DNA of 64,000 bases from Nannocystis bainbridge (GCF_028368995.1 NZ_JAQNDL010000005.1:416001-480000); one strand, 5' to 3'. Shown: positions 19,222 through 56,474, counted from the stretch's first letter. Program-made: numbers and translations. Notes: generated from the sequence alone by a model not told the origin.

Positions 19222-20235
<1,014 letters not shown>

Positions 20236-20463: not shown

Positions 20464-20598
<135 letters not shown>

Positions 20599-37162: not shown

Positions 37163-37648
37163 CTAATTTCTCGCTTTCGAAATATCGCGCACCCGCACAT
37201 CGGACCGCTCGAAGGCCGACTCGCCGGTGATGACCGCAATCGCCGCCGGCCGCTCGGCGAGCAGCTTCCACGACTCGCCCTTGCTGCTGCTGAACAGCCC
37301 GTACACCGCGATCGCCTCCGGAGCTTTGGCGAACGTCAGCGGGATCACCGATTCCTGGCCGGGCAGCACCACCAGCGTCTGGACCACCGTCTCGTCGGGC
37401 TGGACCACCAGGCGGGCCACCGTCGAGTAATCATCCTCGACGAAGCTCTTGCGCGTCGCCGTGCGCACGACCACCTGCAGGGGTCGGCCGTTGTTGCTGT
37501 TCTTCGCGGCGCGAACCGTCAGCGTCACCGTCGGTTCCTTCGGCGTCTTCGGCGGCGCCTCGGCCTTGCAGCCCGGGAGCGCCGACGCGAGCGCCACCAG
37601 CATCGCGGCCAGCAGCGATCGGCGGGTCATGGTCGTTCGCGCCATCAT
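37163..37648 (-). CDS. tssJ: T6SS outer-membrane lipoprotein TssJ/IglE-like
   Basis: ATG overlaps the tssM stop; LPGC lipobox; NSNNGRPLQVVVR, LVVLPGQE, IAVYGLF. Confidence 0.7.
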   Translation of the reverse strand: MMARTTMTRRSLLAAMLVALASALPGCKAEAPPKTPKEPTVTLTVRAAKNSNNGRPLQVVVRTATRKSFVEDDYSTVARLVVQPDETVVQTLVVLPGQESVIPLTFAKAPEAIAVYGLFSSSKGESWKLLAERPAAIAVITGESAFERSDVRVRDISKARN

Positions 37649-40600
37649 CCGCCGCAGTCCCTGACGGCGAAGGGGAGCCAGGGGTCGCTCTCGAGGACCA
37701 CGCTGACATCGCGGGTCGTCGGCGCCACCTCGCCGACGGTCACGCGCCAGCGCACGGGCAGCCGCTTGCCGGCGCTGGCCTGGGTCTGGCTGCATCGCGT
37801 CGCGCGGCCGATGGCCGCCGCCGTCAGCGTGAGGCGCCGCTCGGAGGTCCGCTCGTTCTCGCCGCGATCGAGCAGCCGATAGAAGCTGAACGGACCGTCC
37901 TCCTCGATCGTGTAGGTACGCGGGCCCGCGCCCGGGACCGCGGAGCGCATCTCCAGCGAGACCACCGAGCTGCCCTGATTCCACCACTGGAGCGCCAGGG
38001 TCTGCGGCTCCGGCCGCTGATTGAAGCCATACACCGCCGCGCCGCCGCTGCGCACGTAAGACATCGCGGCGAATCGCTCCTCGTGCGGCTCCTTGGGCAG
38101 CAGCTTCGGCTTCAGCACCACCTTGAGCGGCACGGGATTGCCGTCGGCGTCCCACAGCTTCCGGCTCGTCCGCTCGAGGTCGCTCGTCATCGCCAGCATG
38201 CCGGTCGGTCCCTGCAGATCGGCGAGCATCGTGCGCTGGCCCGAATCGAGCTTCGTCGCCGGCGCGAGCAGCCGGTCGAAGGCCGCCCAGAACGAGCCGC
38301 GCTCCTTCCCCTGGGCCCGCACCACCGCCTCGAGCTCGGCGACGTCGACGTCGACCTCGGCCGAGGGGCTGAAGGGATAGGCCTGGAGGAGCGGGCGCAC
38401 CAGCGGCCGGACCTCGTCCTTCCAGGCCCGCCGCACCTCGGATTCGATGTCGTCGATCCCGAGCGCGCGCACCTCCTGCACCGGCGCGAGGAAGGGCGCG
38501 TGCCAATCGTCGCTCAGCCCGGCGCCGTTCAACCATTCGGCGACCTGCTCCGCGGGGTCGTCCCCGGGGCTCTGCAGCGCGTGCAGGGTGAAGAGCCCCA
38601 GCGGCGTGAGACGCTCGTGGAGCTGGAGCCCGTCGCGCGCCGCGGGAGCGCCGCCCAGGGCGGGCTCCAGCCCGGCCAGGAGCTTTTGATAGGGACCGAG
38701 CCCGGGGTTCGTGCCGTCCTTGGTGGCGAGCAGCGCGACGAGCGGCTCGAACACCTCGAGGGCCGTGGCGAGCGGCTGGACATACGGGTCGTCCTCACTC
38801 AGCTCGAGCGACGCGTTTGCGGTGACCACCGAGAGGTACTCGACGAACCATCCCGACGGCCGCGAGAACCCCTGCAGGACGAAGGGCAGCGTCATCTCGG
38901 TCGCCGGGTCCAGCTCCATGCTCCAATAGTAATCGAGCAGCTCGCGCTTGTAGGTGACCGCATACCGCTGCGTGCACTCCCGGATCGCGCGATCGAGGCG
39001 CTGCGCCTCGGCGATCGTCATGCCGAGGGCCGCCAGCGCGGCGCCCTCGGGCTCGCGGATCGCCGGGCCGAGACGCTCGGCCGCGAACTCCAGCACGGGC
39101 TCGATCCGCTGCTGATACGCGGCCTTGGTGTAGGTCCCGCGGATGAATCGGCTCGGCCCGCCGCCGTAGCCGCTGACGATGCCGACACGGGGCCGCTCCT
39201 CGGTCTCGTCGAAGAACGCGGTCCCATCGTTCATCCGCGACTCCGGGATGTCCGCCAGGACCTGCTGAATGAGCACTTTGGACATGCTGCGCTTGAACAG
39301 GGCCGCCAGCGCCGAACCCTTCAATTCCACCGTCTTGCCGTCGAACGCGATCGTGAAATCACGGGGGATCGCAGGCGGCCTTCGCTCGAGCGCGGAGACC
39401 AGCGTCCCGAGCCCCCAGCCCTCCGTCCGGCTCGCGTCCGTGGCACCTCCCTCGCGCGGCAGGTGCGTCCGCAGGGCCTCCGCGAGCGCCGTCAGGGTCG
39501 CGTACTGCTCCTCGGTCCACAGGTCGATCGGCTCGTCCACCAACAACCGGCGGAACCGACCCTCGAGCAGATCGGGGCGGTCGAAGGCCTTCCGGATCGC
39601 CGCCAGCACCTTGTAATCGGACGGGCTGAGCAGGGCGGGGATCTTCGCCAGCGCCTCGGCCTCCTCCAGATCGATCGTCGGTTGGCCGACCTTCTCCTGC
39701 AGCGCCACGAGGTACCGCGACCACTCGCGCCCGACGTTGTCATACTTCTCGCGCGCCGCGGGATCCGCGGGCTCCGGCGGCTCCGGCGGCTTGACGCTCC
39801 CCATCTCCGGAGAGCTCGCCTCGACGTAGTGCTTGATGACCTCGCCCGAGAGACCGAGCGCGTGCTCCCACAGCGAGCGATGCTCGCGGATGATCGCCCC
39901 GAGCTCGTTGGCGTGACTCGAGTAGATCAGCGCCATGAGGTAGTGCAGCTGCAGTCGATCGCTGCAGGGGATCTTCGGGTAGAGGTAGCCCTTGCGGAAC
40001 GTCTCCTCGAACCGCTCCTCGATGTCGCGCTTGCGGGCGACGAAGGTGCGCGCGAACCACAGCCGCTCCGATTGCTTGACGGCTTGGAGCGCCGCGGCCT
40101 CTGCTTTGGGCGGTTCCATCTTCGCCCCCGCGCCCTGGTGTTTGCAAACCTCCGGATCCTTCACAGGGCCGACGTCGCGCTCGAACTTGTCGATCCGCGC
40201 CTCGGCCTCCACGATCGACGCCCGGTGCCAGCCCATGAGCGACGCGATCAACGCGGCGCCACCCACCCCGACGGCCAGCGCGCCTCGCAGCCCGCGCTGG
40301 TGATGGCGGCCGAGGCTCGTCGAGATCAGATCGCGGGAGATCTGGAATGGCAGGCCCACGTGGGTGCGGGGCGCCAGCGAGCCGAGGTAGAGGCCGCCGA
40401 CGCTCAGCGGCATCGCGTGGGGCTCGTGCCGCCCCTGCAGCGTCTCCAGGAGCGGCCGCAGGCCGTCCAGCAGCGCCCGCAACGACTTGTAGAAGCGGAC
40501 CAGGCGGTCGAACTCCTCGCCGCTGCGGCTCGTCAGCGCGTACGCCAGGTGCCCGTCGAAGGTGGCGACCAGGCGCGCGGCCTGGTTCGGCTCGGTGAGG

Positions 40601-41316
40601 GACTCGAGCTCGAGAGGTTCGTGATCGGGCCCGACCACCGCGGCGAACGCCTCGAAGCCGTCGACCTGATCGAGGTGGCTGAGCAGCACGCGGACCTCGA
40701 GCGACGCCCGGCATCGCCGCGGGAACAGGCCGATCTTGCCGCGGACGAGCTGCGCCAGCTCGTGCAGCGCCGCCGGCGGCGTGGTCAGCAGCGAGCGCGC
40801 GTCGAGCACGAGGACCACCGTCGCGCTCGGGCCCATGTGCCACCACATGCGCCATAGGGCCTGGCGGGCGCCGCGGCTGACGTCGCGCAACAGCGGCGCC
40901 GACAGCTCGTGGACGACGACGTCGGGGCCGAGGTAGAGCTGCAACGCGGCGTCGTGGGCGACGCTACCGCGGAACTGATTGGCCTGACCGCGCCAGTCGA
41001 CGTGGCTCGAGATCGCGTGCGTCTTGCCGACCCCCGCGGCGCCCATCACGACGACCGTCGGAAAGTGGAGCGCGCGGGTCGGGATCCGGCGGTAGAACGG
41101 GCGCCACAGCCCGGCCAGGCGCGACGCGAGCAGCGGCCCGGCCGGCCTCGGCGGCGCCGCGGCCGCTCGCTTGCGCCGCCACACGACGACCGCCCACACC
41201 ACGGCCGCCAGGACTACTACCAGTAACAGGCCGAGGAGCGCCCACTGCCACCAGGAGAACATCTCCGGCGCCATGGCGCTCGCTCCTTCGGCTTCGTCCG
41301 TCGTCATCGTCAACAT
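37645..41316 (-). CDS. tssM: T6SS membrane complex protein TssM/IcmF (PdpB-like)
   Basis: N-terminal TM, Walker A GAAGVGKT, LSHLDQVDGFEAF, second TM, C-terminal YPF...FW region; follows dotU. Confidence 0.85.
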   Translation of the reverse strand: MLTMTTDEAEGASAMAPEMFSWWQWALLGLLLVVVLAAVVWAVVVWRRKRAAAAPPRPAGPLLASRLAGLWRPFYRRIPTRALHFPTVVVMGAAGVGKTHAISSHVDWRGQANQFRGSVAHDAALQLYLGPDVVVHELSAPLLRDVSRGARQALWRMWWHMGPSATVVLVLDARSLLTTPPAALHELAQLVRGKIGLFPRRCRASLEVRVLLSHLDQVDGFEAFAAVVGPDHEPLELESLTEPNQAARLVATFDGHLAYALTSRSGEEFDRLVRFYKSLRALLDGLRPLLETLQGRHEPHAMPLSVGGLYLGSLAPRTHVGLPFQISRDLISTSLGRHHQRGLRGALAVGVGGAALIASLMGWHRASIVEAEARIDKFERDVGPVKDPEVCKHQGAGAKMEPPKAEAAALQAVKQSERLWFARTFVARKRDIEERFEETFRKGYLYPKIPCSDRLQLHYLMALIYSSHANELGAIIREHRSLWEHALGLSGEVIKHYVEASSPEMGSVKPPEPPEPADPAAREKYDNVGREWSRYLVALQEKVGQPTIDLEEAEALAKIPALLSPSDYKVLAAIRKAFDRPDLLEGRFRRLLVDEPIDLWTEEQYATLTALAEALRTHLPREGGATDASRTEGWGLGTLVSALERRPPAIPRDFTIAFDGKTVELKGSALAALFKRSMSKVLIQQVLADIPESRMNDGTAFFDETEERPRVGIVSGYGGGPSRFIRGTYTKAAYQQRIEPVLEFAAERLGPAIREPEGAALAALGMTIAEAQRLDRAIRECTQRYAVTYKRELLDYYWSMELDPATEMTLPFVLQGFSRPSGWFVEYLSVVTANASLELSEDDPYVQPLATALEVFEPLVALLATKDGTNPGLGPYQKLLAGLEPALGGAPAARDGLQLHERLTPLGLFTLHALQSPGDDPAEQVAEWLNGAGLSDDWHAPFLAPVQEVRALGIDDIESEVRRAWKDEVRPLVRPLLQAYPFSPSAEVDVDVAELEAVVRAQGKERGSFWAAFDRLLAPATKLDSGQRTMLADLQGPTGMLAMTSDLERTSRKLWDADGNPVPLKVVLKPKLLPKEPHEERFAAMSYVRSGGAAVYGFNQRPEPQTLALQWWNQGSSVVSLEMRSAVPGAGPRTYTIEEDGPFSFYRLLDRGENERTSERRLTLTAAAIGRATRCSQTQASAGKRLPVRWRVTVGEVAPTTRDVSVVLESDPWLPFAVRDCGG

Positions 41317-41328
41317 CGTCGCGCCTCG

Positions 41329-41553
41329 TCATCTGCCGACAGCGGGCCAACCTCGGGTCCGCAGGCGGGCCTCGAGCAGATCCTCGAGCAGGTCGAGCCG
41401 CGGCCCGACATCGACCGGAGCGTCGCCCGTCGCCGCGAGCATTCGCCGCAGCTCGTCCAGCGGTCCGGCCAGCGCAGAGAACGCCTCTCCATCGGCCGGG
41501 AACAACCGCTCGACCTCTCGCACGAGCGCCTCCAGGGCCGCGAGCAGGGTCAC
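41329..41553 (-). CDS. Small helical hypothetical protein (74 aa) between dotU and tssM
   Basis: GTG overlaps the dotU stop; amphipathic TLLAALEALVREVERLF...LDLLEDLLEARL. Confidence 0.6.
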   Translation of the reverse strand: MTLLAALEALVREVERLFPADGEAFSALAGPLDELRRMLAATGDAPVDVGPRLDLLEDLLEARLRTRGWPAVGR

Positions 41554-42305
41554 AACATCCCTCCCACCGGATGATTCGAGAGCGCGGTCAGCAGCCACGC
41601 GCTCGCCACGACCACCAGCAGCCCCAGCGCATAATATCGCCAGGTGGGCCACGGCTGCGGCAACTCCCCGGGCTCCGGATCGAGCGGCTCCGATACGGCC
41701 GAAGGATGGGGGATGCGCTCGGCGAGCCGCTGCTTGTAGAAGTGAATCTGCCCCGAGTCGGTGGCGAACATGCCCACGAAGCCGTGGCTCAGACAATAAT
41801 AGTAGACCTCGAGCACCAGCGCCGGCGTCCGCGGGTCGTGGAGCGCGTCGTCGATCGCGGTGAAGAACTCGCTGCCGCCGGTGGTCGTGCGCGTGAACTC
41901 CGTCTGCATCAGCGGCCAGCTGAGCCGCAGGTAGTCGGGGAGCAGACGCATGATCCGCTCGTCGAAATGGACCAACAGGGCCCGGCGGATCCGCTCGAAT
42001 CCTGGCTCGCCGGCGAACGCGGCCCACAGCGTCTCCAGGCGCCTGCGAACCGCCTCGCGGAGGCCCCCGAGGCGCTCGTGGTCGCGCTCGTCGAGCCCGT
42101 CGGTCCGCATGGGAGCCGGCACCTCGATGGCGCCCGTCCCGGCGCGAACGTCTCGCCACGCGGTCTCGCGCAGCGGCGTCGCCACGCGCGGCGGCGCCGT
42201 CGTGAGCGGACGGCGGCCAGGGAGGTCCGCGGCCTCGGCCGCCACGAGGGCGTCGATCTCCGCGGAGAGATCGAGGAGCACCGTCCACAGCGCCTGTCGC
42301 GTCAT
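41550..42305 (-). CDS. tssL: T6SS TssL/DotU
   Basis: ALLVHFDERI, WPLMQTEF, GGSEFF, LEVYYYCLSHGFVGMF, C-terminal TM. Confidence 0.9.
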   Translation of the reverse strand: MTRQALWTVLLDLSAEIDALVAAEAADLPGRRPLTTAPPRVATPLRETAWRDVRAGTGAIEVPAPMRTDGLDERDHERLGGLREAVRRRLETLWAAFAGEPGFERIRRALLVHFDERIMRLLPDYLRLSWPLMQTEFTRTTTGGSEFFTAIDDALHDPRTPALVLEVYYYCLSHGFVGMFATDSGQIHFYKQRLAERIPHPSAVSEPLDPEPGELPQPWPTWRYYALGLLVVVASAWLLTALSNHPVGGML

Positions 42306-43927
42306 CGGCTCGGCCTCGCCTTCTCGCCGCGTCGGCGCGCGCCGGCCTCATGCGTGCGGATCTCGGCCGGGTTGTTGCTCCACGCGTTGATGAGCGCCCC
42401 CAGACAATGCAAGTAGTCCGCGACCAGCCCACGGCGCTCCGCCGCGACGTCGCCGAGGGTCACGTCGTACACGTGCTGCACCCCGCCGCGATTGCCCGCC
42501 GGTTCATCGCGGACATCGACGTGCCGGATCTCGTCCGCGACATCGCCGTGGGGGCCGTGTGCATCGGCGCCGAGCGTCGTCATCAGCATGACGATGTCGC
42601 TGCGGCTCAGGACCCGCTTGGCGCGGCGCGACATCACGTGCAGCATCGCCGTCGAATCGCGCCACAGCGGGCTGCGGCGGTGCGGCGTCATCCGGCCCAG
42701 CACGCGGAACCCGACGCCCTCGAAGTGGCGGTGCTGCAGCGAGGCATCGAGCGCGCCGACGGCCACGGCGTCGAAGCTCGGCTGGAACCAGCGGGCCCGC
42801 ACCAGCACGCTGCGCGGGTGCATCAGGGCGTCGGGCAGCCGCAGCAGCAGGTGCGCCGCGTCCGGTTCGCCGGTGTGGTCGAGCTCCCAGCTCTCCGCCC
42901 CGCCGGCCAGGTGGCCGGGCAGCAGCGGATCGAGGCCGTCGCGGGTCTCCTGCTGGACCTCGACGATCGAGTGGAACGCGACCTCGTGGTCGACGCGCCA
43001 CGGGCGGATCGCGTGGCGGGAGCGCGTCCCGTCGGCCTTGATCGGCTCGGCCAGCTCGGTGAACAGGTTCTCGATCGGCACCACGAACAGGCGGAACATC
43101 TCCGAATTGACGACCTGTCCTTCGGGCCATGCGTCGAAATCGAGGCACAGCCACGCCTGCCGCCACGGCCGCGACGGCCGCGCGAGATCGACGGCGAGCG
43201 TCAGATCCTTGGCCGGGAAGTGGAAGAACTCGCGGATCCGCGCGACCGCGCTGCGCGTCTCGCCAGGCGGCGCGGCCTCGTCGGACTCGCCTGGCGCGCC
43301 GAGCCAGAACCGGCACTCGGCCCCGGGCTCGGTCGGCGACGGCGGCTCGCCGTACACGACCGCGACCCGGCTCAGGTGGAGGCGCAACCACTCGAAGAAT
43401 TCGCGCGACACCGGGTAGTCGCCGAGGTGATCGATCTGGAGGGACAGCGGCTCGGGCACGCCGGCGACCGGGACCCGCGAGCGCAGCCGGAGCAGCACCC
43501 GGTGGCCTGAGCCGCCGAGCAATTGCAGCTCGGCGCGGTCGAGGTCGAGCGGGCGGATCGTCACGTCGCGCATGGTCGAGAAGAACCCCACCTCGCCGTC
43601 GGCGGTCTCGAGGCGGACCCGGCTCCCGCGGGGAATGTGGGCAGGCTCGGCCAGGCGCGGGCTCGGCAGCCCGCGGAGCAGCACGCGGGCCGGCTGCGGC
43701 AGCGCGAACTCGTCGAGCAGCCCGTGCGTGAGCCGGGCGATCGCCCCGCGCAGCTCCGCCGCCGCCGCCTCGTGCGTGCGCGCGGCGAAGAACGCCAGCG
43801 ACTCCATCAAGCGGCGGACATCGGGGTCCTCGGGCTGGATGAAGCCCTCCCCGCCGCGGCGGCGGAGCAGGAACTCGTCGAGGGCCTCCAGCTCGCCGAG
43901 AAAGTCGCGATAAAAGCCCTGGTTCAC
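42302..43927 (-). CDS. tssF: T6SS baseplate TssF (IglH-like)
   Basis: FLGELEAL, EDPDVRRLMESLAFFAAR, IREFFHFP, FVVPIENLF. Confidence 0.85.
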   Translation of the reverse strand: MNQGFYRDFLGELEALDEFLLRRRGGEGFIQPEDPDVRRLMESLAFFAARTHEAAAAELRGAIARLTHGLLDEFALPQPARVLLRGLPSPRLAEPAHIPRGSRVRLETADGEVGFFSTMRDVTIRPLDLDRAELQLLGGSGHRVLLRLRSRVPVAGVPEPLSLQIDHLGDYPVSREFFEWLRLHLSRVAVVYGEPPSPTEPGAECRFWLGAPGESDEAAPPGETRSAVARIREFFHFPAKDLTLAVDLARPSRPWRQAWLCLDFDAWPEGQVVNSEMFRLFVVPIENLFTELAEPIKADGTRSRHAIRPWRVDHEVAFHSIVEVQQETRDGLDPLLPGHLAGGAESWELDHTGEPDAAHLLLRLPDALMHPRSVLVRARWFQPSFDAVAVGALDASLQHRHFEGVGFRVLGRMTPHRRSPLWRDSTAMLHVMSRRAKRVLSRSDIVMLMTTLGADAHGPHGDVADEIRHVDVRDEPAGNRGGVQHVYDVTLGDVAAERRGLVADYLHCLGALINAWSNNPAEIRTHEAGARRRGEKARPSR

Positions 43928-43930
43928 GCC

Positions 43931-44485
43931 TCAGCCCGCCTTGATCAGCGACCCGCCGATCGTCGTCATGCTGCCCTTGAGCGCCGCCATGCCCGAGGAC
44001 TCCAGCGACAGCTGCGCGTCGGCCTTGACCGCCACCTGCATGCCCGCGAGCTCCGCCTGCGTGTTGCCCTTGAGCTTGATCGACTGCGTGCCCGACGCCT
44101 CCACCGTGGCGCCCTCGATCTTGGCCGCGCTCTGGGCCTTGATCGCGACGTTGGCCCCGGAGACCTTGAAGTCGTTCTGGGCCTGCTGCACCACGTCGGC
44201 GCCCGACTTCACGGTCGTATTGCCCTCCTTGGACTCATAGGTGGCCGTCTTCGTGGCCGTGCAGGTGATCGACTCGCGCGCGACCACCTCGAATTGCTTG
44301 CACGAGATCGTCACCTTCTCGGTCGTCTGCGTCAGGGACGTCTCCTCTTGCTCGCCTTTGACCTTCGCCACCAGCGTCGTCCCGTTCATGGTGATCGTCT
44401 GCACGATCTTCCCCTCGGCGTCTTCGACGGTGATCGTCACGCCGCGCTCCTTGCTCATCTCCAGGGTGCAGATCAGCTTCGTCAT
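43931..44485 (-). CDS. Short VgrG-like spike protein (beta-strand repeats only)
   Basis: 184 aa of alternating beta-strand repeats (ITISC, VAIKA, IKLKG, LSLES) ending TTIGGSLIKAG; directly after the hub gene. Confidence 0.7.
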   Translation of the reverse strand: MTKLICTLEMSKERGVTITVEDAEGKIVQTITMNGTTLVAKVKGEQEETSLTQTTEKVTISCKQFEVVARESITCTATKTATYESKEGNTTVKSGADVVQQAQNDFKVSGANVAIKAQSAAKIEGATVEASGTQSIKLKGNTQAELAGMQVAVKADAQLSLESSGMAALKGSMTTIGGSLIKAG

Positions 44486-44491
44486 CGCGCG

Positions 44492-46521: not shown

Positions 46522-46524
46522 CGC

Positions 46525-47793: not shown

Positions 47794-47797
47794 CGCG

Positions 47798-48373
47798 TCA
47801 CTTCTCGACCTTGAGACCCCACGCCTTGACGATCTTGACCGAGAACGAGGTGGCGACCGTGATCGTCTGAGCCAACGGCTGCGGCTTGACGCCGATCTGG
47901 AACGCGTAGTTCTCGGGGGACTGCACCTCGGTCGAGGCGTCGTCGGAGGTGTCGATGTTCAGGTCGCCGCCTCGCTTCTCCAGCAGCCCGTCGAGCGCCT
48001 TGTCGGTCGGCAGCAGGCACTTGAAGTACTTCTTCTCGAGCGGGTCGTACTCGTAGATGCTGAAGTTGTAGGAGACATCGACCTTGGACAGGTCCTTGTA
48101 GGCGAGCTGCTTGATCTGCTGCTTGTTGAACACCGAGATCTGGCCGGAGAAGTAGAGCCCGTCGGTGACCCCGAGCTCCCACAACACCCCGCTGAGGACG
48201 GTGACGACCGCGAGATCGGTCTCGGGCGCCATGGGGTCCTTGCAGGTCTGGTCGGCCTTGAGCGTGACGTCGCCGATCTTGAGCTCGGTCAGGAATCCGA
48301 CCGGGGTCTGGACGTCCTTCTTGAAGTTGTAACCCTGGTAAATGTCGCAGTGCTTCTGGAATGTGGCAGGCAT
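47798..48373 (-). CDS. Probable T6SS inner tube protein (IglC/Hcp analogue)
   Basis: Lies between the sheath gene and tssK, as iglC does in the iglABCD order; 191 aa, beta-rich, strong codon bias; FLTELKIGDVTLKAD weakly recalls IglC. Confidence 0.6.
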   Translation of the reverse strand: MPATFQKHCDIYQGYNFKKDVQTPVGFLTELKIGDVTLKADQTCKDPMAPETDLAVVTVLSGVLWELGVTDGLYFSGQISVFNKQQIKQLAYKDLSKVDVSYNFSIYEYDPLEKKYFKCLLPTDKALDGLLEKRGGDLNIDTSDDASTEVQSPENYAFQIGVKPQPLAQTITVATSFSVKIVKAWGLKVEK

Positions 48374-48397
48374 CGCTTGTCTCCTCGCTGTTTGCTA

Positions 48398-50851
48398 TCA
48401 GGCCCCGCCGAGCGCCGCTTCCAGCCGCAGCTCGACGTCCATGCCCTGGAACTGGATGTGCGGCAGCACCGCGACCTTGCAGCTGTACCAGCCGAACGGC
48501 CCCGGCTTCGGCTCGACGCTGACCGACATGGCCTTGAACGGGTAGTAGAGCAGCGTCAAATCGTCCGGGTTGACCGCCGTCGTCACGTACTCGACCAGCC
48601 AGGCCTCGAGCATCGACTGGATGTATGGCGCGTCGGCCGTCGAGCCGATGTAATCCCGCACCATCCGCTTGACGTAGTGGGCGATGCGCGTGATCGACAG
48701 CGTATACGCCAGGTTGCAGATCAGGTCGGCGTTCTTGGTGTCGAGGTCGTCCTCGAACTCGATCGCCCGCTTGACCGCGCGCGCGCTGAAGAACGTCACG
48801 TCCGCCGTGCCCTTGCAATGGACCAGAGGGATGAAGCCGGCGTTGGCCAGCTGCAGCTCGCGATAGTCCGGGATCGCCACCTCGACCGGCGGCTGCAGCT
48901 CCTCCTGCCCGTGGTGGAGCACCATGTGCACCGGCAGGCCCTTGATCAGCCCGCCGCCGAGCGGCCCCGCGATGTGCTGACACCAACCCGACGCCTGGAA
49001 CGAGCGCACCATGTTGCGGGCGAACAGCACCGCCGCGTTGCCCCACAAGTAGTCGCCCGGCCCGCCGATCTTCTCCTCGAAATCGACCGCCTGCTGCTTG
49101 CCGGCCTGGCGCACGTAGGGCGCGCGCAGCATGTAGCGCGGCATGGTCAGGCCGATGTAGGCCGCCCCGTGCGTCTCGCGGAAGGCCGCCCACCGCCCGT
49201 ACTGCGGCAGCGCCATCAGCTCCTCGATGTCCGGCTTGCGATCGAGCTCCTCCCAGGTCTCGCTGGAGAAGAAGCGCGGGCTGACCGCCGCGACGAACGG
49301 GCAGTGCGCCGCGGCGCTGATCTTCGACACTGTCTGCAGCCAGTCGATGTCCTCGTCGCTGTTGTCGAACTCGTAGAGCCCGATCATCACGCCGATCGGC
49401 CGCCCGCCGTAGCGATCGTACTCGTCGATGTAGACCTTGCGGAACAGCGCGCTGTTGAGGATGTAGCTCGAGTGGTCCTCGAAGTCCGCGCGCAGCACCT
49501 CCTTGTCCGCGTCGAGGAAATCGATGATGACCTCGTTCGAGTTCACCTCGCGGCACAGATCGTCGAGCGACCGCCAGCTCGTCTCGAGCGCGCGCAGGCT
49601 CGGGCTCTGGACCACCCCGGCCAGCCGCTTCTGCACCAGCCCGTCGAGCTCGTGCAGCAGCGTGTCGATGGCGATCATCATGGTGCGGATCGAGTCGACC
49701 CGGCGCCCCTCGAGGAACGGGTCGATGTTGACCAGCAGCACCGCCAGGATGTTGGCGAAGCGGTCCGCGAGGGTGAAGCTCGTGTCGCGGTCGTGGAACG
49801 CCAGGTTGGCGCTGCCCGGTCGTTCGACCAGCGCGCGCTGCTTGTTCTCGGACGGGTTCATGCCCGCGCTGCTGATCAGCCGCTCGAGCAGCGCCTTGGC
49901 GTCGGGCTCGGGCTCGTCCGGCGCCGCATCCACGGGGGCCGCAGCGGCGTCCGGGCGGGCCTCTGCCACCAGCAGCGGATACCTCCGGCGGAAGTACCCG
50001 CGCAGCTGCCCGAACGCCGACTTCTCGCCCTCGGCGACCGGCACCTCGCGCAGCTGCACGAGCTCGGCCTTGAGCGCCTCCCGCAGCTCCGGGAAGCTCG
50101 AGATGTGATTGCGCGCCTCGAGCACCAGCCGATGCAGCAGCACGATCCGCCGGATCTCCGGCACGCTCATCGCCACGTGCAACGGCTTGAAGTCGTTGAT
50201 CGAGCGCAGCGGGATCGTCAGATCGACCGGCACCTTCTCGGCGCTGACCTGGCTCTTGAGCCCGCCCGTCAGCTCCGTCGCGGCGCTGTCGTTGGGGCCG
50301 ACCGTGACCTCGAATTCCCCGTGGACATCGCCCGTGAGCCCGATCTCGGCGCCCGGCGGCGGCTCGACCTTGCCGTGAACCGAGAGCTTCACCGGGGTGC
50401 CACCATCGGGGATCGCCAGCTCTCCGTTCGCGAACGGCAGCATCGCCTCTCCGCTGATCTCGACCTCGCCGGCGAAGCTCCCGAGCCGGTTGGCCCGGAA
50501 GTCGCCCTTCACCGTGGCCGTGCCGCGGATCTTGACCTTGGCCTCCGTCGCCCCGGCGGCGGGCTCACCGACCAATGTTCCGGTGACCGACCCGGCGAGC
50601 GCCCCGGCCAGCACCTCGCGCAGCTCGGCGTCTTCGATCGGCGCCGTCACCTTCATCTCGTCCATGAAGCTGGCCAGCTTCATGCCCGGCAAGATCGAGT
50701 GGATCGGACGCTCCCCAAGCAGGCGCCGGTTGGCCCCCGTGAAGTCTCCGAGCACCAAGAAACGCATCGGCAACTTGGCCTTCTTCGGTTTGCCGTCGAT
50801 CTTGGTCCGATAGCTGATGTTGAGACGCGAACGAGGGACTGGCTTACTCAT
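48398..50851 (-). CDS. Fused T6SS sheath TssB-TssC (IglA-IglB-like)
   Basis: ATG 50851; VPRSRLNISYRT...KLPMRFLVLGDFT and INDFKP...VPEIR (TssB), continuing without a stop into EYDRYGGRP, YLWGNAA, RIAHYVK, YPF, PHIQFQGM (TssC). Confidence 0.92.
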   Translation of the reverse strand: MSKPVPRSRLNISYRTKIDGKPKKAKLPMRFLVLGDFTGANRRLLGERPIHSILPGMKLASFMDEMKVTAPIEDAELREVLAGALAGSVTGTLVGEPAAGATEAKVKIRGTATVKGDFRANRLGSFAGEVEISGEAMLPFANGELAIPDGGTPVKLSVHGKVEPPPGAEIGLTGDVHGEFEVTVGPNDSAATELTGGLKSQVSAEKVPVDLTIPLRSINDFKPLHVAMSVPEIRRIVLLHRLVLEARNHISSFPELREALKAELVQLREVPVAEGEKSAFGQLRGYFRRRYPLLVAEARPDAAAAPVDAAPDEPEPDAKALLERLISSAGMNPSENKQRALVERPGSANLAFHDRDTSFTLADRFANILAVLLVNIDPFLEGRRVDSIRTMMIAIDTLLHELDGLVQKRLAGVVQSPSLRALETSWRSLDDLCREVNSNEVIIDFLDADKEVLRADFEDHSSYILNSALFRKVYIDEYDRYGGRPIGVMIGLYEFDNSDEDIDWLQTVSKISAAAHCPFVAAVSPRFFSSETWEELDRKPDIEELMALPQYGRWAAFRETHGAAYIGLTMPRYMLRAPYVRQAGKQQAVDFEEKIGGPGDYLWGNAAVLFARNMVRSFQASGWCQHIAGPLGGGLIKGLPVHMVLHHGQEELQPPVEVAIPDYRELQLANAGFIPLVHCKGTADVTFFSARAVKRAIEFEDDLDTKNADLICNLAYTLSITRIAHYVKRMVRDYIGSTADAPYIQSMLEAWLVEYVTTAVNPDDLTLLYYPFKAMSVSVEPKPGPFGWYSCKVAVLPHIQFQGMDVELRLEAALGGA

Positions 50852-50945
50852 GTGATCTTCCCGTACACAGCGACTAATCATGGGAACAGCGGTGGCACCA
50901 AAAAAGGTGCGAGCTGTGTTTTTCGGCGCTGAAAAGCCGGCACAT

Positions 50946-50961
50946 GTTTCCGATCGGAAAC
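50946..50961. promoter_or_regulatory. Perfect 16-bp palindrome GTTTCCGATCGGAAAC in the divergent T6SS promoter region
   Basis: Read directly; a second inverted repeat GCACC-A6-GGTGC lies at 50895-50910. Confidence 0.55.
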
Positions 50962-51067
50962 GACGAAGCGCAAGGCCGCGCATCGGCCAGATCGGCGCAT
51001 GGCGACGGCGTCTGGCAGATATCGTATGCGCTTTACTGGATCGCGCGTCCGTGTATCATGCCCTCCT

Positions 51068-51787
51068 ATGTTGGAGTTATTGCCGCCGACCTCCCCCTGT
51101 CCCCCCCACGCCGACCCCCGGCTCGAGCGGACCACGACGAGGATCCGGGACCTGGTGGCCGGGACGCACCTCCAGATGGCGCTCTCCATCGGTCGAATCG
51201 TGGTCGAGGAGATTTATGACGGAGACCTCAAGAGCTGGCGCCGCCGCGGCCCGAAGGACCCTTCTCTGCGCCGGCTAGCCGCCGATCCCCGGCTCACGAT
51301 CAGCGCCTCTGCGTTATATCGCGCGCTCGGAATCTTCGAGCTCAAGGTGCGGTTCGCGGATCATCCGATGTGGGATATGCTCACGGCCTGCCACCTTCGG
51401 GCGGTGCTGGGGCTGCCGGAGTCGGAGCAATGCCGCCTGCTCGATCTGGCGACCACCAGCGCCTGGACCTCCCAGACCCTCGAGCACGCGGCGGCCATCA
51501 GCCGCGACAACCACAAGACCTCGCGCGGCGGCCGTTCGCGCAAGTCCCCGGTCGTGCGTGCGATCGAGACCGCCGAGCGAGCGCTGGCCGGCGACCAGGA
51601 CGTGGACGTGGCGTCCCCCGCCGTGCTCGTCGAATTGCCGGCGGAGCAGCGCGACGACCTCCTGCGCCGCCTCAGCCTGATCCGCGAGCGCTGCGCCTCG
51701 CTCGCCACGGCGCTGGAGGGCCAGCTCCCCGAGTCGCACGCGCGATCGGAGTCGAAGCCCGGCGTCTCCTCGTACGCCCCCCATTGA
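51068..51787 (+). CDS. Hypothetical helical protein, possibly DNA-binding
   Basis: ALSIGRIVVEEIYDG, DPSLRRLAADPRLTISASALYR, HLRAVLGLP; start uncertain. Confidence 0.6.
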   Translation: MLELLPPTSPCPPHADPRLERTTTRIRDLVAGTHLQMALSIGRIVVEEIYDGDLKSWRRRGPKDPSLRRLAADPRLTISASALYRALGIFELKVRFADHPMWDMLTACHLRAVLGLPESEQCRLLDLATTSAWTSQTLEHAAAISRDNHKTSRGGRSRKSPVVRAIETAERALAGDQDVDVASPAVLVELPAEQRDDLLRRLSLIRERCASLATALEGQLPESHARSESKPGVSSYAPH

Positions 51788-51867
51788 GCGCGATCGCCCG
51801 GCCCCATTTCGCGAATGGTTATTCGCGAGCAACGTAAAATTTGGACCCCCTCTCGCCAGGCCCCAAG

Positions 51868-53622
51868 ATGGCAGACGAGCTCGGGACAGTGTTCGCGGAT
51901 CACATCATCGCCGCATGCTCGCTCATCGCCCCTTCCTCGGGCCGGACCGGCGATCTGGACTGGCTGCGCGCCACCCACCGAATGCCGGGGGCGTTCTGGG
52001 AATCGCTGTTCCGCGTGCTCGACGACGGCAGGGGCCCGCCGCTCAAGAGCCGGCCCAGCGAGGGCTTCGACCCCTATCACGATATGGTGGTCCGGCATCT
52101 CGGTGCCGATCGAACTGCGCTCCAGATCCACGATCCACGGCTCCCTGAGGGACACCGCTGGCAGTCGTTCTCATTCGACGACCTCCACGCTCGGTGCACG
52201 CTTCGCGCCGCCTCATGGGCCGCCCAGGGCGTCGAACCCGGAGCGATTGTCTGCGTCGTGCTGCCATTCGGTGTCGAATGTGCGATATCGCTGCTGACCG
52301 CGTTGCGCATCGGCGCCCTCGTATCACTGCTCGAGCCCGGGGGCCCCGACCTCCTCGGACGGCGCCTCGAAGCGCTCGCACCCCGGCACATCGCCACCGA
52401 CGCCTTCTATCGACCGTTGCTCGGCCTATTCGCCGATCTGACCCTCGAGCCAGCCGCGAGTCCCCCGCTGTTCGGCGCGCCATCGCGCTGGTATCGCCCC
52501 GGTGAGCCCTGCGCCGCGCTGTTCTCCCCGCTGCGCCGGCCGCCCCACCTGCCGGTCCCGCTCCGCTGCGACGAGCTGTACCTCGGCGCGCTCCGGGACG
52601 GCGCCATGACCTTCGCGTTGCGCCCCGGCGACCGCCTCGCCGCGCCCGGCTTCGATGCGCTGCAGCACCAACCCGCCCTGCTGTTCGCGGCGCTGCTGGC
52701 GGGTGCCACCTATGTGCATATCGAGGCCGAGGAGGCGCTCCGCGACCCCCGGCTTTTGGACGCCTTTCCGCTGCGCAGCCTCGGGCTCGGCGCGCGCATA
52801 TGCGAGCACCTGTTGGGCACGCGCGCCATCGCTCGTCCGCAGTGGTCGCACGTGTTTCGCAACCCCGAGGAGCCGACCGACTGGGAGTCCTGGCGCGAGC
52901 TGATCGACGCGCTGGGCCTGCACGAGACCGCCATGTCCAATGTCGTGCTCGAAGCGGCCGCCGGCGGCTCTCTGCTCGGTTCGCCGCGCCGGCCGGGCAA
53001 GGCCCACCTGGGCGCCCTCATGAACCTCGTCCCCGCCGCCGGTCGGCCGTGGAAGCTGCTGGACTTCACCGGCAGCGGCCAGCCGGCCGTCGGCGACGTC
53101 GGCGTCTTCGCCCCGCTCGCCACGATCGACGCCGACGCCGACACCGACCCGCTCGACCCCCACGTCGTGCTCGGCCTGAGACACGGCGGCGAGTTCCTGT
53201 ACGGCGGCGCCACCGAGCCCCGCCGCAGCGGCCGCGTCTACCCTGTCGACGAGGTGCTCGCAGCCCTCGACGATTGCCCGTTCCTTCACGGCGCCAGCCT
53301 CGTCGCCGTCCCTGCTGGCGGCCCGACCCTCGCGCATCGCTTCGTCCTGCTCGGCTTCACCGGCGACGAGCCGATCGCCAGCTTCGAGGCCCTCCGCACC
53401 GCCCGCATCGACGAGCTGAAGCGGGTGCTGAGCACGCGCCTCACCCCCGACTTCTTGCCCGACGCGATCGAGCTGTTCCCCTGCTTCGCCCGCCTCGCCG
53501 ACGGCGCGGTCGATCACCGGTGGTGCCAATTTCAATTCCATAGCGGGGCCCTGCACGCCAGAGTGCGGACCCCCGTATTTCAGCGGCTGACGGCCCTTCG
53601 CGGCGCACTCGGCCGCGCGTGA
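51868..53622 (+). CDS. Degenerate AMP-binding (ANL superfamily) protein associated with the T6SS
   Basis: SFSFDDLHARC...AAQGVEPGAIVCVVLP...LLTALRIGA is ANL-like, but no TSGTTG P-loop is present. Confidence 0.65.
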   Translation: MADELGTVFADHIIAACSLIAPSSGRTGDLDWLRATHRMPGAFWESLFRVLDDGRGPPLKSRPSEGFDPYHDMVVRHLGADRTALQIHDPRLPEGHRWQSFSFDDLHARCTLRAASWAAQGVEPGAIVCVVLPFGVECAISLLTALRIGALVSLLEPGGPDLLGRRLEALAPRHIATDAFYRPLLGLFADLTLEPAASPPLFGAPSRWYRPGEPCAALFSPLRRPPHLPVPLRCDELYLGALRDGAMTFALRPGDRLAAPGFDALQHQPALLFAALLAGATYVHIEAEEALRDPRLLDAFPLRSLGLGARICEHLLGTRAIARPQWSHVFRNPEEPTDWESWRELIDALGLHETAMSNVVLEAAAGGSLLGSPRRPGKAHLGALMNLVPAAGRPWKLLDFTGSGQPAVGDVGVFAPLATIDADADTDPLDPHVVLGLRHGGEFLYGGATEPRRSGRVYPVDEVLAALDDCPFLHGASLVAVPAGGPTLAHRFVLLGFTGDEPIASFEALRTARIDELKRVLSTRLTPDFLPDAIELFPCFARLADGAVDHRWCQFQFHSGALHARVRTPVFQRLTALRGALGRA

Positions 53623-53644
53623 GCGCGAGGAGGAGGAGGAGACC

Positions 53645-54034
53645 ATGGCCATCGCAGTGTGCATGGGAGCCACCATGATGTGCAGCTTCGGCGTCGCGCC
53701 GGCGAGCCTCGTCGTCCTGCCGACCGGCTCGATGGTGACGCCCGCCGTCCCCTCCGCCAACATCTCCGCCTTCGCCCCGGTCGCCAACGTCCCCCCGTTC
53801 GGCGCCTGCACCTCGATGGCCAACCCCACCGTCGCCGCCGCGACCGCGGCCGCCCTCGGCGTGCTCACGCCGATGCCCTGCGTGCCCATGACCACCTCGC
53901 CGTGGATCCCCGGCACGCCGACCACAATCAACGGGGCCATGCCTGCCGTCGACGCCAGCTGCAAGCTCATGTGCAACTGGGGCGGCTGCATCTCCGTCCT
54001 CAACCCCGGTCAGACGACCCTGATGGTCCAATGA
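53645..54034 (+). CDS. DUF4280 PAAR-like spike tip protein (IglG-like)
   Basis: GGAGGAG RBS; VCMGATMMCSFG, PFGACTSMANP, PMPCVP, W..G, CKLMCNWGG. Confidence 0.92.
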   Translation: MAIAVCMGATMMCSFGVAPASLVVLPTGSMVTPAVPSANISAFAPVANVPPFGACTSMANPTVAAATAAALGVLTPMPCVPMTTSPWIPGTPTTINGAMPAVDASCKLMCNWGGCISVLNPGQTTLMVQ

Positions 54035-55242
54035 TCGAGCCGCTGCCCTCCCCCGGCGAATTGCTGCGCGGCCGGCACTCCGGCGCCGCGACCGTCCGCA
54101 GCGACGCGAACGGCGTCGTCCACAAGCTGCTCGACCTGGCCGACCGCGGCAATTACCTCGAGGCCGCCGCGCAAGCCGCCGAGCTGCTGCAGGGCGCCTC
54201 CGACGACGTGCGCCTCGTCGCCGTCTACTTGGCCGGCCTGTTCGTCGAGCGCGGCGTCCCGGCGCTGCCCGAGCTCCTCGAGGTGGTGGAGAAACTGGGC
54301 GACGAGCCCTCGCGTCCCCTCGCCTCCGCCCTCGAGTGGCTGTTCCGCGCCGTCGTCGAGCGCGTCGCCTTTCACACCACGCAACGCGACGCCACCTGGG
54401 AGTCCTGGCTCCGTGAACTCGACCCCGCCCAGGTCGACGCGCTCGCTACCCGCTGCGATGCCCTCGCCGCCCGCTTCGCCACGGGAGCCGCCGCGCTGCA
54501 GAAGCTCGCGCGCTGGGCCCGCGAGAAGCTGATGCCGGCGGTCGCCCGCGCCAGGAAGAGAGCGCCCCCCGAGCCCGCTCCGGCCGCCCTGCAACCCGCC
54601 CTCGATCCCGAGCCCGAGCGAGGCCCTGCCTGGGACGCCGCCGAGCCCGAGCCCGCAGACGACGAATCCGAGGACGACGAGCACGACGACGCGCTCGAGC
54701 ACGACGAGCACGACGACGAGCACGAGCACGACGACGACGATCCGAGACGCGAGCACGACGAGCGAACCGTGGATCTCGACGAACCTCGCTTCGAGCGAAG
54801 GCGCGGCGAGCGGCCCGTGGCGTCGGACGAAGCTCGCTTCGCGCGGCGACGCGGCGAGCGAGCCATGGAGCTCGACGAGCACAGCCGCGAGCATCGACGC
54901 GGCGAGCGAATCACGGAGTTCGACGAGGCCCGGCGTCCCGAGCGAGCCGTCGTGCTCGACTCACCCGCCCTGCTCGAGCTGCGCGACAAGCTGCACGCGT
55001 TCGAGGTCGTCCTGGCCCGCGGCGAGCTCGACAAGGCCGCCGTGATCGCCCACGACGTCCAGTCGATCCTCGGCAACTTCGATCCCGTCTTCTACTTGCC
55101 CGCGCTGTTCGGCCGCTACTCCGAGCTCCTCCACCACGCCTTCCCCGAGCTCGAAGCGCGCTGGAGCGACACCGCCGACCCGCGGTGGCGGATCCTCGTC
55201 CAGTTCTACCGCACCAACCTCGCCGGCTTCGTCGGCGAGTGA
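54031..55242 (+). CDS. T6SS accessory protein, IglI/TssA-N-like, with acidic and repeat insert
   Basis: ATG overlaps the DUF4280 stop; DVRLVAVYLAGLFVERG (ImpA_N-like); C-terminal KLHAFE...KAAVIAHDV...FDPVFYLP. Confidence 0.6.
   Translation: MIEPLPSPGELLRGRHSGAATVRSDANGVVHKLLDLADRGNYLEAAAQAAELLQGASDDVRLVAVYLAGLFVERGVPALPELLEVVEKLGDEPSRPLASALEWLFRAVVERVAFHTTQRDATWESWLRELDPAQVDALATRCDALAARFATGAAALQKLARWAREKLMPAVARARKRAPPEPAPAALQPALDPEPERGPAWDAAEPEPADDESEDDEHDDALEHDEHDDEHEHDDDDPRREHDERTVDLDEPRFERRRGERPVASDEARFARRRGERAMELDEHSREHRRGERITEFDEARRPERAVVLDSPALLELRDKLHAFEVVLARGELDKAAVIAHDVQSILGNFDPVFYLPALFGRYSELLHHAFPELEARWSDTADPRWRILVQFYRTNLAGFVGE
54760..54939 (+). repeat. In-frame degenerate 48-bp (16-aa) tandem repeat, about 4 copies
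   Basis: ERTVDLDEPRFERRRG / ERPVASDEARFARRRG / ERAMELDEHSREHRRG / ERITEFDEARRP, starting at 54760, 54808, 54856 and 54904. Confidence 0.8.
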
Positions 55243-56474
55243 CGCCGGTTCGCATGCCGCCCGCCGCTCCGACCGCGACCGACCGACTCGCCGCCATCGA
55301 GCAGCGCGTGGTCGCCAGGATCCACGACTTCGAGGTCGGGGCGCTGCTCGATCTGCTGGCGTCGATCGGCTACGGCCCCGGCGAGCTCGAGTTCCGCGCC
55401 CACCCCTCGAACGGCCCCCAGCCCGCGCTGCTGCACGCGATCGCCTTCCCCGACCCGCACGCGCGCGCTCTCGGCCGCGCGCGCGTCGTCATCACCGTCA
55501 ACCTCGGCCTGCTCAGCTGTCGCTCGCCGCTGCCGACCTACTTCCGCCGCCTCTTGCAGGACATGGAAACGCGGGATCCCGTACTCGAGCTGATCGGCGT
55601 GCTCGATCGCTCGCTCCTGCACACCCGCCTCACCAGCGATCGACCGGAGCGCATGCTCGCCGGCTGGGACCGGGTCCGCCGCGACCTCGTGCAGGTCTTC
55701 GGCCTCGACTCCCCGATCGGCCTGACCTGGCTGTTTCGCCAGATCTTCCCGGAGCTCGCGCTGCACGTGCGACGGATCTTCGACGAGCACCCGATCCCCT
55801 ACGACGGCGCCGTGCTCGGCACCTCCGAGCTCGGCGAGTGCTCCTTCGGCGAGTACGCCCGCGTCGGCGTGCACGACATGGAGGTCACCCTGTTCTGCGA
55901 GGACGCGCTCTACCGCGAGCGCATCCCGTGGATCCACGAAGGCGACCGACGATTGCGCAGCTCGGTGTTTCCGCTGCTCGACGAGGTCTGCCTGACCCTG
56001 ACCGTCGTGTTCGTCCTGCTGCGCCACGGTGAGGGCGCCCGCCTCGGTCCCCCCGGCCGCGCCGGCCACAATCCCATGTGGCGCCCCGGCACCGCCCCCG
56101 CGCTGCCGCCCAGCCGCGTCGAGGTCTATCGCGGCACCCTCCCTCGCAACGAACCCGACACCGACCACCTCGAGCGCATCCTCGCCGACGAACTCCCCGC
56201 TTCGCTCACCGTCCTCCCCGCGCCGTCCCCCGCGCATGAAACTCTCGGTCATGCCATCGCCCTTTCGCTGGTCCACCGCGCCCCCGGCGAGCGCCCGCAC
56301 ACCTATCACGTGACTGTGCGCTGGGGCTCGCGCGCGTGGGACCTCGACGAACCGCACGCGATCGACCTGCGCTGCGACGACGTGCCCAAGACGCCCCTGT
56401 CCCGCATCGCTCACCCGCGCCTGTGGGCCAAGCTCCGCGACGCGGCCCGCGCCTCGATCCCCCGAGACATCTAG
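55239..56474 (+). CDS. T6SS baseplate TssG (IglJ-like) with C-terminal extension
   Basis: GTG overlaps the upstream stop; ITVNLGLLSCRSPLPTYF, SPIGLTWLFRQIFP, AVLGTSELG. Confidence 0.65.
   Translation: MTPVRMPPAAPTATDRLAAIEQRVVARIHDFEVGALLDLLASIGYGPGELEFRAHPSNGPQPALLHAIAFPDPHARALGRARVVITVNLGLLSCRSPLPTYFRRLLQDMETRDPVLELIGVLDRSLLHTRLTSDRPERMLAGWDRVRRDLVQVFGLDSPIGLTWLFRQIFPELALHVRRIFDEHPIPYDGAVLGTSELGECSFGEYARVGVHDMEVTLFCEDALYRERIPWIHEGDRRLRSSVFPLLDEVCLTLTVVFVLLRHGEGARLGPPGRAGHNPMWRPGTAPALPPSRVEVYRGTLPRNEPDTDHLERILADELPASLTVLPAPSPAHETLGHAIALSLVHRAPGERPHTYHVTVRWGSRAWDLDEPHAIDLRCDDVPKTPLSRIAHPRLWAKLRDAARASIPRDI

Follow-up and report, generated by a model that had tools for sequence, protein, structure and literature searches.

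The Francisella pathogenicity island's (FPI's) type VI secretion system (T6SS) is classified as subtype ii (T6SSii). It has been described as being "in a class by itself", with IglJ acting as TssG (PMC9600919, 2022), and Francisella has been stated to "uniquely possess" T6SSii (PMC12955703, 2026). The T6SSii model of TXSScan detected systems in Francisella genomes alone (preprint 10.1101/031039). The Francisella counterparts of TssA, TssE, TssF, and TssG are listed as unknown in Table 1 of a 2018 review (PMC5924787). The closest homologs of F. tularensis DotU have been reported from Stigmatella, Desulfonatronospira, and Haliangium (Bröms et al., 2012; PMC3326028). Our literature search found no description of an FPI-type system outside Francisella, and phylogeny supplements (e.g., Figure S1 of PMC3326028) could hold such sequences. 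In this work, a stretch of 64,000 nucleotides from Nannocystis bainbridge (GCF_028368995.1, NZ_JAQNDL010000005.1:416001-480000), hereafter the window, was analysed together with the T6SS gene cluster that it carries. We consider it very likely that the cluster encodes a complete and probably working T6SS of the lineage that includes FPI, in a less diverged form carried by a free-living bacterium.

The cluster is organised as two divergent operons and its features are shown in Table 1. The G+C content of the window is about 0.70, and real genes were chosen by third-position G+C and then by family searches. All 14 core open reading frames (ORFs) are intact. The parts that had been listed in a preliminary description of the sequence were all recovered in place by ORF calling and by Pfam and NCBIfam searches. 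The gene order of sheath, tube, and TssK on the minus strand is that of iglA-B-C-D, as had been proposed there. The T6SSi core parts TssB, TssC, TssE, TssF, TssG, TssK, TssJ, TssL, and TssM were all recognised, with TssG recognised weakly and TssB and TssC fused. Curated cut-offs were passed by TssC, TssK, TssE, and TssJ, and the scores of TssF, TssL, and TssM fall below or near them.

The cluster resembles FPI in having a sheath closest to IglB, a tube protein with the predicted IglC fold, a PdpA-like hub split from a short VgrG, a DUF4280 tip, an IglI-family protein, an IglE_N lipoprotein, and no ClpV. The order of the genes for the 593-residue, DUF4280, IglI-family, and TssG-like proteins also follows iglF-iglG...iglI-iglJ of the F. 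philomiragia cluster. It differs from FPI in having TssE, in TssF and TssK proteins that score far better on general models, and in TssM, whose Walker A motif is retained, whereas PdpB of F. philomiragia has no match to the pattern G....GK[ST]. The hub is also shorter (548 residues against 820 in PdpA), the DUF4280 protein is without the IglG extension, the sheath is a single chain with an insert, and the host is free-living with a high-GC genome of 11 Mb (assembly of 11.05 Mb in five contigs). Compared with canonical T6SSi such as those of M. xanthus, V. cholerae, and P. aeruginosa H1 (solved sheaths 5urw, 3j9g, and 5n8n), the cluster has recognisable TssB/C, E, F, (G), K, J, L, and M, and its sheath core fold matches theirs with template modelling (TM) scores of 0.75-0.86 by target. 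It differs from them in lacking Hcp, canonical VgrG, ClpV, and a clear TssA.

Two reference sets were used for these comparisons. The first is the T6SS cluster of F. philomiragia (15 proteins), which was searched with hidden Markov models (HMMs) of 13 window families. The expected counterpart ranked first at E<=1e-5 for seven of the 13 (DotU, IglG, IglI, IglD, PdpA, VgrG, and IglE), and nothing was found for five (tube, 593-residue protein, TssG-like protein, TssE, and TssM). Comparison by hhalign supported the pairs TssK-IglD and hub-PdpA and no others. The second set consists of 68 loci that were identified in a one-genome-per-species collection using a degenerate DNA pattern of the sheath motif shared with IglB. 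Their hosts are three Francisella species, many Myxococcaceae and Archangiaceae, Methylococcales, and several Desulfobacterota.

The sheath had been described preliminarily as the product of two genes; it is encoded instead by a single 817-codon frame, in which TssB and TssC are fused and an insert is present. This is the only VipA or VipB match in the window. TssB-like matches were obtained over residues 5-74 and 194-264 and TssC-like matches over residues 390-817 in Pfam and Protein Data Bank (PDB) searches. The chain comprises TssB (about 1-75 and 194-290), an inserted beta domain (about 80-214), a linker rich in alanine and proline (about 290-390), and TssC (about 390-817). The Pfam scores are 52.7 bits (VipA), 323.5 bits (VipB), and 112.7 bits (VipB_2), and the score on TIGR03355 (TssC) is 412.3 bits, over the cut-off. 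The closest solved sheath among 14 PDB sequences is IglB (3j9o_B, 340.9 bits), followed by P. aeruginosa TssC1 (282.4 bits) and by M. xanthus, V. cholerae, and other solved sheaths at about 262 bits; canonical T6SSi sheaths thus score 262-282 bits against 341 bits for IglB. A Francisella record (323 bits) is also the top of 579 matches in a plasmid collection of 72,556 records, with the next at 278 bits. The TssC part can be superposed on every solved T6SS sheath, and its identity is highest with IglB (38%); the motifs that the preliminary description had quoted for their likeness to IglA/IglB align with IglB residue by residue.

The AlphaFold2 (AF2) model of the sheath was built from 31 fused sequences (predicted local distance difference test, pLDDT, 77.7; predicted TM score, pTM, 0.80). 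Long beta strands are predicted at residues 80-214, a domain of about 135 residues with block pLDDT of 83-92. Confidence is low in the linker near residue 305 and at both termini. For the termini this is what strands paired solely between subunits would give. Both the N-terminal TssB strands and the C-terminal VipB_2 domain are retained, and these are the segments that interlock sheath subunits.

The fusion is also present in 44 of the 120 best database relatives, where VipA and VipB lie in one chain of 803-1315 residues. The fused relatives come from Nannocystis, Sorangium, Polyangia, and unnamed metagenomes, their identity ranges down to 37%, and their C-terminal region is invariant. One further long relative among the 120 (P0060) is without the TssB part. 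Unfused close relatives (514 residues, 77% identity) interleave with the fused ones, and at least six changes between the fused and unfused states are needed on the 60-row tree described below, some of which may be differences in gene calling. In the 68 loci TssB and TssC are separate genes, and the insert (residues 76-193) gave no tblastn match there. Of five other members of the phylum that were queried, three matched, with TssB frames 208-305 codons long; one frame (228 codons) could be aligned to either side of the place of the insert. A soil-metagenome contig crosses the linker without a gap, and it may come from the source sample, so it is not independent. A search of titles and abstracts found no natural full-length TssB-TssC fusion, and such a fusion with an inserted domain is unreported as far as the literature could be searched.

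The 191-residue tube protein has no sequence match in Pfam, NCBIfam, or the PDB (phmmer). Its AF2 model was built from a 25-sequence alignment (pLDDT 88.5, pTM 0.85). Foldseek gave a single match at E<=0.001, to the IglC crystal structure (2qwu_A, TM 0.71/0.66, identity 12%). In the VIA-align comparison with 48,161 representative chains, IglC ranks first (Z 15.7, 178 residues, root-mean-square deviation 2.9), followed by Hcp proteins (Z 7-9.2) and phage tube proteins (Z 5-6). Both comparisons indicate that the protein is, by fold, a tube of the Hcp superfamily and specifically of the IglC form; the Hcp/IglC fold on which the preliminary description depended is thus present in the predicted structure. 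The family profile of the tube matched only nanobody and antibody chains in the PDB, and these matches were taken as spurious.

Among 1.84 billion proteins, the tube profile matches 887 representative clusters (50% identity) at E<=0.001, of which 277 reach E<=1e-30. For the 120 best of 338 word-search matches, each name shown is "hypothetical protein" and none has a Pfam domain. Homologs at E<=1e-5 occur in 13 genomes, including that of the window, of a 401-genome sample of its phylum. Some database proteins (P0241, 648 residues; P0255, 1105 residues; P0341, 615 residues) have three tube-family stretches per chain, and they are either tandem-fused tubes or merged gene calls. Contigs that are 85-93% like the tube and the TssC part were also found in an RNA-labelled wastewater run (X20). 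Their source is a relative, and the material may have been DNA, hence they show no expression.

The division of VgrG into a hub and a short spike, which had been proposed from the sequence, holds. The two proteins are encoded by separate ORFs without Pfam match, and a full-length VgrG with gp27 and gp5 in one chain was not found. The hub has no Pfam or NCBIfam match; its family profile (16 sequences) has PdpA (6u9e_A, E 9.6e-5) as the only PDB match, and F. philomiragia PdpA was matched at E 3.2e-11 by HMM and at 91.8% by hhalign. The spike profile (13 sequences) matched VgrG 8gra_I (E 1.4e-6) and Francisella VgrG 6u9e_B (E 1.9e-5), where it covers residues 37-185 of 189, nearly the full length. 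The spike HMM matched F. philomiragia VgrG at E 1.4e-6. The tip also proved to be a DUF4280 protein, as described preliminarily (105.5 bits), and its HMM matched F. philomiragia IglG at E 1.8e-18. It corresponds to the IglG-like core, and the N-terminal extension of IglG (profile positions 1-53) is absent.

TssK scores 275.5 bits on TIGR03353 (cut-off 100), and F. philomiragia IglD was matched both by its family HMM (E 9.2e-13) and by hhalign (96.7% across 372 columns). The canonical TssE that had been noted is retained, with 45.2 bits on Pfam GPW_gp25 and 58 bits on TIGR03357 (cut-off 53.2). TssF scores 102.8 bits on Pfam T6SS_TssF and 101.4 bits on TIGR03359, below the cut-off, and its match to F. 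philomiragia IglH is weak (HMM E 0.02); in the NCBI models IglH is already called TssF, and IglJ a baseplate protein. The TssG-like protein matched Pfam T6SS_TssG at E 0.0036, below the cut-off, and the only two PDB matches of its family profile at E<=1 are TssG chains (6n38_G, E 0.057; 6giy_C, E 0.071). Genes in the positions of IglI and IglJ had been proposed in the preliminary description: the former is an IglI-family protein by the curated model, and the latter is weakly TssG-like.

The envelope genes dotU and icmF and the lipoprotein gene were all found as described. DotU scores 65.8 bits on Pfam and matched F. philomiragia DotU at E 9.8e-21. TssM scores 33.6 bits on IcmF-related_N and 30.3 bits on IcmF_C, and has the Walker A motif GAAGVGKT at residue 92. 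The lipoprotein scores 64.8 bits on IglE_N (cut-off 26), 31 bits on T6SS-SciN, and 39.6 bits on the general TssJ model TIGR03352 (over 31.6), has the lipobox LPGC in its translation, and its HMM matched F. philomiragia IglE at E 1.2e-5.

The IglI-family protein scores 162.3 bits on NF041244 (cut-off 100), and its HMM matched the 398-residue F. philomiragia IglI at E 3.1e-16. The N-terminal domain of TssA (ImpA_N) scores 17.7 bits in the window protein, below the cut-off of 26.9, and weak ImpA_N matches occur in 3 of 14 family members at E<=0.05 (best E 1.1e-4). IglI may be the equivalent of TssA that is listed as missing from FPI. Sub-threshold matches of the IglI_fam model were also observed near the third sheath locus of the genome (C2:1078669-1079871) and in the E. 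coli control. The 593-residue protein scores 30.1 bits on Pfam AMP-binding, and its family profile matched, at E 3.6e-10 and weaker, acetyl-CoA synthetases and adenylation domains, for the most part over residues 67-175. It has no P-loop motif. The likeness to adenylate-forming (ANL) enzymes in the N-terminal part only and the missing P-loop indicate that the protein is probably a pseudo-enzyme. Its gene lies just upstream of the DUF4280 gene, which is the place of iglF in FPI, and 21 of the 68 loci (e.g., L016, L018, L019, and L042), across phyla, keep it next to the cluster.

The absence of clpV and canonical Hcp that had been noted for the cluster was reproduced, as profile searches found no ClpV-like or Pfam Hcp (PF05638) match in the window. 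The single ClpV over the cut-off in the genome lies on contig C2 beside a canonical T6SS, a ClpB-like gene lies on contig C1, and the two PF05638 matches of the genome lie on C1 and C2. Three VipB-family matches were identified in the genome: the window sheath and, on C2, a gene of the canonical T6SS and a divergent TssC-like gene. The canonical T6SSi cluster (TssB, TssC, Hcp, and ClpV over the cut-off) is at C2:1013245-1018442. The third TssC-like gene, at C2:1080084-1098840, is very divergent and has a long tree branch, no TssB match was found beside it, and TssF- and TssE-like matches lie about 17 kb away. The 1122-codon frame of this gene was considered as a second fusion and rejected, being an ordinary TssC-like protein of about 500 residues after an open wrong-frame stretch.

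The presence of this separate canonical T6SS with Hcp and ClpV could speak for a decaying or silent relic, in which the joining of TssB and TssC is an incapacitating accident and the work is left to the canonical T6SS. We regard this explanation as very improbable. It is contradicted by the 14 intact core ORFs, by the recurrence of the fusion among the best relatives at low identity with an invariant C-terminal region, and by a sheath that keeps both interlocking terminal segments and an insert that is predicted to fold confidently. It is also contradicted by the genomes of Methylobacter and Syntrophus, which carry the T6SS type of the window alone.

The same genes in the same order were found by tblastn in the loci of Myxococcaceae, Archangiaceae, Methylococcales, and Desulfobacterota. 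The conserved order is the 593-residue protein, DUF4280, IglI, and TssG on one strand, and TssB, TssC, tube, TssK, TssE, hub, spike, TssF, TssL, and TssM on the other. No Hcp-like match was found in the 68 loci, and a ClpV-like match lies beside one alone (L049). The family is large, unannotated, and spread over at least three phyla, and the reported DotU homologs of F. tularensis agree with this distribution, though they concern one protein only. In Methylobacter psychrophilus and a Syntrophus genome, the sheath type of the window is the only one, and no Pfam Hcp and no ClpV over the cut-off were found. Both have a second ClpB-like gene 7-14 kb from TssC that scores 773-799 bits on the ClpV model, below the cut-off (G002:C68:231044-233509; G003:C1:1218978-1221452). 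This gene may encode a dedicated disassembly ATPase without myxobacterial counterpart. No ClpB-like gene was found near the window-type cluster in Cystobacter fuscus, Myxococcus eversor, and the window genome, and these three have a canonical T6SS with ClpV elsewhere.

Unrooted TssC trees of 60 and 76 rows were constructed with quick IQ-TREE runs under LG+C20. The T6SSi rows that were added consist of nine named plasmid TssC genes and canonical myxobacterial copies. A further 29 of 30 TssC loci came from 201 genomes sampled from the class of F. philomiragia, 38 of which have a match; the truncated ORF L107 was left out. Both trees exhibit three groups: A (the window with Myxococcaceae, Methylococcales, and Desulfobacterota), F (Francisella), and T (T6SSi), where T has 11 rows in the 60-row tree and 42 in the 76-row tree and contains all T6SSi sequences. 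The branch that separates A and F from T has 100% support by the Shimodaira-Hasegawa-like approximate likelihood ratio test (SH-aLRT) in both trees, and the split of A from F and T has 96% in the 76-row tree. As the trees are unrooted, these splits exhibit three distinct groups and no more. Francisella joins the path between A and T nearer to A, roughly one quarter along it (0.31 against about 0.95). The window sheath thus lies outside the ordinary T6SSi clades, on the same side as IglB of the fully supported branch of the unrooted tree. The suggestion of a system intermediate between subtypes i and ii stands for gene content, where TssE, TssF, and TssK can be recognised, as can Walker A in TssM. 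It does not follow for phylogenetic position, the tree being unrooted. In an approximately unbiased (AU) test, the grouping of Francisella with the Methylococcales members inside A, which was named after the tree had been seen, was not rejected (log-likelihood difference 1.06, p 0.48). That A and F form a natural group is argued mainly by shared parts that are not known from the T6SSi core, namely the IglC-form tube, the PdpA-like hub with short VgrG, and the IglI family.

Several observations weigh against assigning the cluster to the FPI lineage as a probably working system. In the tree, Francisella is on a long branch (1.5-1.6), for which the tool warns of long-branch effects, and A, F, and T meet at one node of an unrooted tree that has no T6SSiii outgroup. 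With a single meeting node, a sister relationship to Francisella rests on branch lengths and shared parts and not on topology. Three of the FPI-like parts score below the cut-offs of the Francisella models: the lipoprotein on the IglE equivalog NF041245 (49.4 bits against 75), the spike on NF041249 T6SS_TssI_Fran (32.6 against 100), and the tip on the IglG model NF041248 (54 against 200, profile positions 54-168 alone). At the sequence level, the tube was not matched to IglC by profile against the PDB, nor by HMM or hhalign against F. philomiragia IglC. Neither HMM nor hhalign against the single F. philomiragia sequences related the TssG-like protein to IglJ, TssM to PdpB, or the 593-residue protein to IglF; the hhalign probabilities for these pairs, for TssF with IglH, and for TssE with anything were at most 2%, which against single sequences is weak evidence of absence. 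As a further difference from FPI, family searches did not find PdpC, PdpD, and PdpE among the flanking ORFs, and the F. philomiragia reference is also without them. Lastly, general models pass their cut-offs for TssC, TssK, TssE, and TssJ, hence automated classification could assign the locus to T6SSi.

In a second explanation, the cluster is a divergent subtype of canonical T6SSi and FPI is an extreme T6SSi offshoot, with no separate class needed. It agrees with the passing models (TIGR03355, TIGR03353, TIGR03357, and TIGR03352), with the Walker A motif kept by TssM, with F. philomiragia IglD itself passing the TssK model at 238.9 bits, and with the unrooted state of the TssC tree. We consider it improbable, as the cluster is without an Hcp-family tube, canonical VgrG, ClpV, and a clear TssA, and has instead a tube of predicted IglC fold, a PdpA-like hub, a short VgrG, and an IglI-family protein. 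The 13-component T6SSi core is not known to include any of these four. The clade is also apart from the 42 sampled T6SSi TssC sequences across the fully supported branch, which has a length of about 0.95.

Under the preferred assignment to the FPI lineage, we infer from the identity and conservation of the parts how the machine would be assembled, fired, and recycled, and where the insert would lie. The envelope complex would consist of the IglE-type lipoprotein, DotU, and IcmF/TssM with the intact Walker A motif, and the baseplate of TssK, TssE, TssF, and the TssG-like protein. The spike would be formed as in Francisella by the PdpA-like hub, the separate short VgrG beta-helix, and the DUF4280 (IglG-like) tip. 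The tube would be a polymer of the IglC-type protein and not of Hcp. The single-chain TssB-TssC would polymerise around this tube, contract, and expel it, and the extra beta domain would presumably lie on the sheath surface. The IglI-family protein, possibly the TssA equivalent, and the degenerate adenylate-forming-fold protein would be accessory parts. Without a ClpV in the cluster, recycling would depend on the housekeeping ClpB, the route reported for Francisella, or on the ClpV that belongs to the separate canonical T6SS. Fungi or protists were suggested as possible targets in the preliminary description.

Table 1. Positions of the T6SS cluster and its genes in the window (lengths in residues, aa).
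Feature	Position	Strand	Basis
T6SS cluster, two divergent operons	37163-56474	- and +	ORFs, Pfam, NCBIfam
Outer-membrane lipoprotein TssJ, IglE type, 161 aa	37163-37648	-	IglE_N, T6SS-SciN, lipobox
TssM/IcmF (PdpB counterpart), 1223 aa	37645-41316	-	IcmF-related_N, IcmF_C
TssL/DotU, 251 aa	41550-42305	-	Pfam DotU
TssF baseplate protein (IglH counterpart), 541 aa	42302-43927	-	Pfam T6SS_TssF
Short beta-helical spike, Francisella VgrG type, 184 aa	43931-44485	-	Family profile against PDB
Spike hub, PdpA-like, 548 aa	44492-46138	-	Family profile against PDB
TssE, gp25-like sheath initiator, 127 aa	46138-46521	-	GPW_gp25, TIGR03357
TssK baseplate protein (IglD counterpart), 422 aa	46525-47793	-	TIGR03353
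Tube protein of predicted IglC type, 191 aa	47798-48373	-	AF2 fold comparison
Single-chain sheath TssB-TssC, 817 aa	48398-50851	-	Pfam VipA/VipB/VipB_2, TIGR03355, PDB
262-aa ORF, first in plus-strand operon, T6SS membership uncertain	50999-51787	+	
593-aa protein, degenerate adenylate-forming (ANL) fold	51841-53622	+	Pfam AMP-binding
PAAR-like spike tip DUF4280, 129 aa	53645-54034	+	Pfam DUF4280
IglI-family protein, 403 aa	54031-55242	+	NF041244
Weakly TssG-like protein, IglJ position, 406 aa (429 aa from GTG at 55185)	55254-56474	+	

The 262-residue ORF has no Pfam or NCBIfam match and no tblastn match across the 68 loci. Two ORFs of low G+C are located at the operon ends. The first (707 residues, 34740-36863, minus strand) is just downstream of the lipoprotein gene, has G+C below its surroundings and a cysteine-rich N-terminus, has no family match, and is not conserved across the 68 loci; an Atlas structure search gave a weak likeness to GT-B glycosyltransferases (TM 0.3-0.45). 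The second (467 residues, 56476-57879, plus strand) ends the plus-strand operon, shows no conservation across related loci, and matches TET-associated glycosyltransferase below threshold (Pfam TAGT, E 4.8e-4; Atlas feature score 0.92). Comparison of the two revealed no similarity. Both could be candidates for cargo, and the 707-residue protein for cargo or an effector. Elsewhere in the window, positions 14001-22000 have G+C of 0.61-0.66 against about 0.71 around them and contain a frame of 1023 codons at 15254-18322 on the minus strand.

We judge the chances about even that the family represents a large, unrecognised T6SS class of free-living Myxococcota, Desulfobacterota, and methanotrophic Gammaproteobacteria that is the environmental ancestral stock of FPI, with a working single-chain sheath and an added surface domain in its myxobacterial branch. 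A widespread and less diverged sister family would provide bridging sequences for FPI parts still to be assigned, such as IglI, IglF, and the TssE equivalent, and would give a view on the origin of a major virulence system. Its harmless, cultivable carriers would be safe model organisms for a machine of the IglC/PdpA type. The working single-chain sheath, if true, would amount to a reversion in nature to the one-protein design of phage-tail sheaths. Together with its extra domain, the single chain is also a natural experiment in the ways in which sheath subunits can be made and recycled without ClpV.

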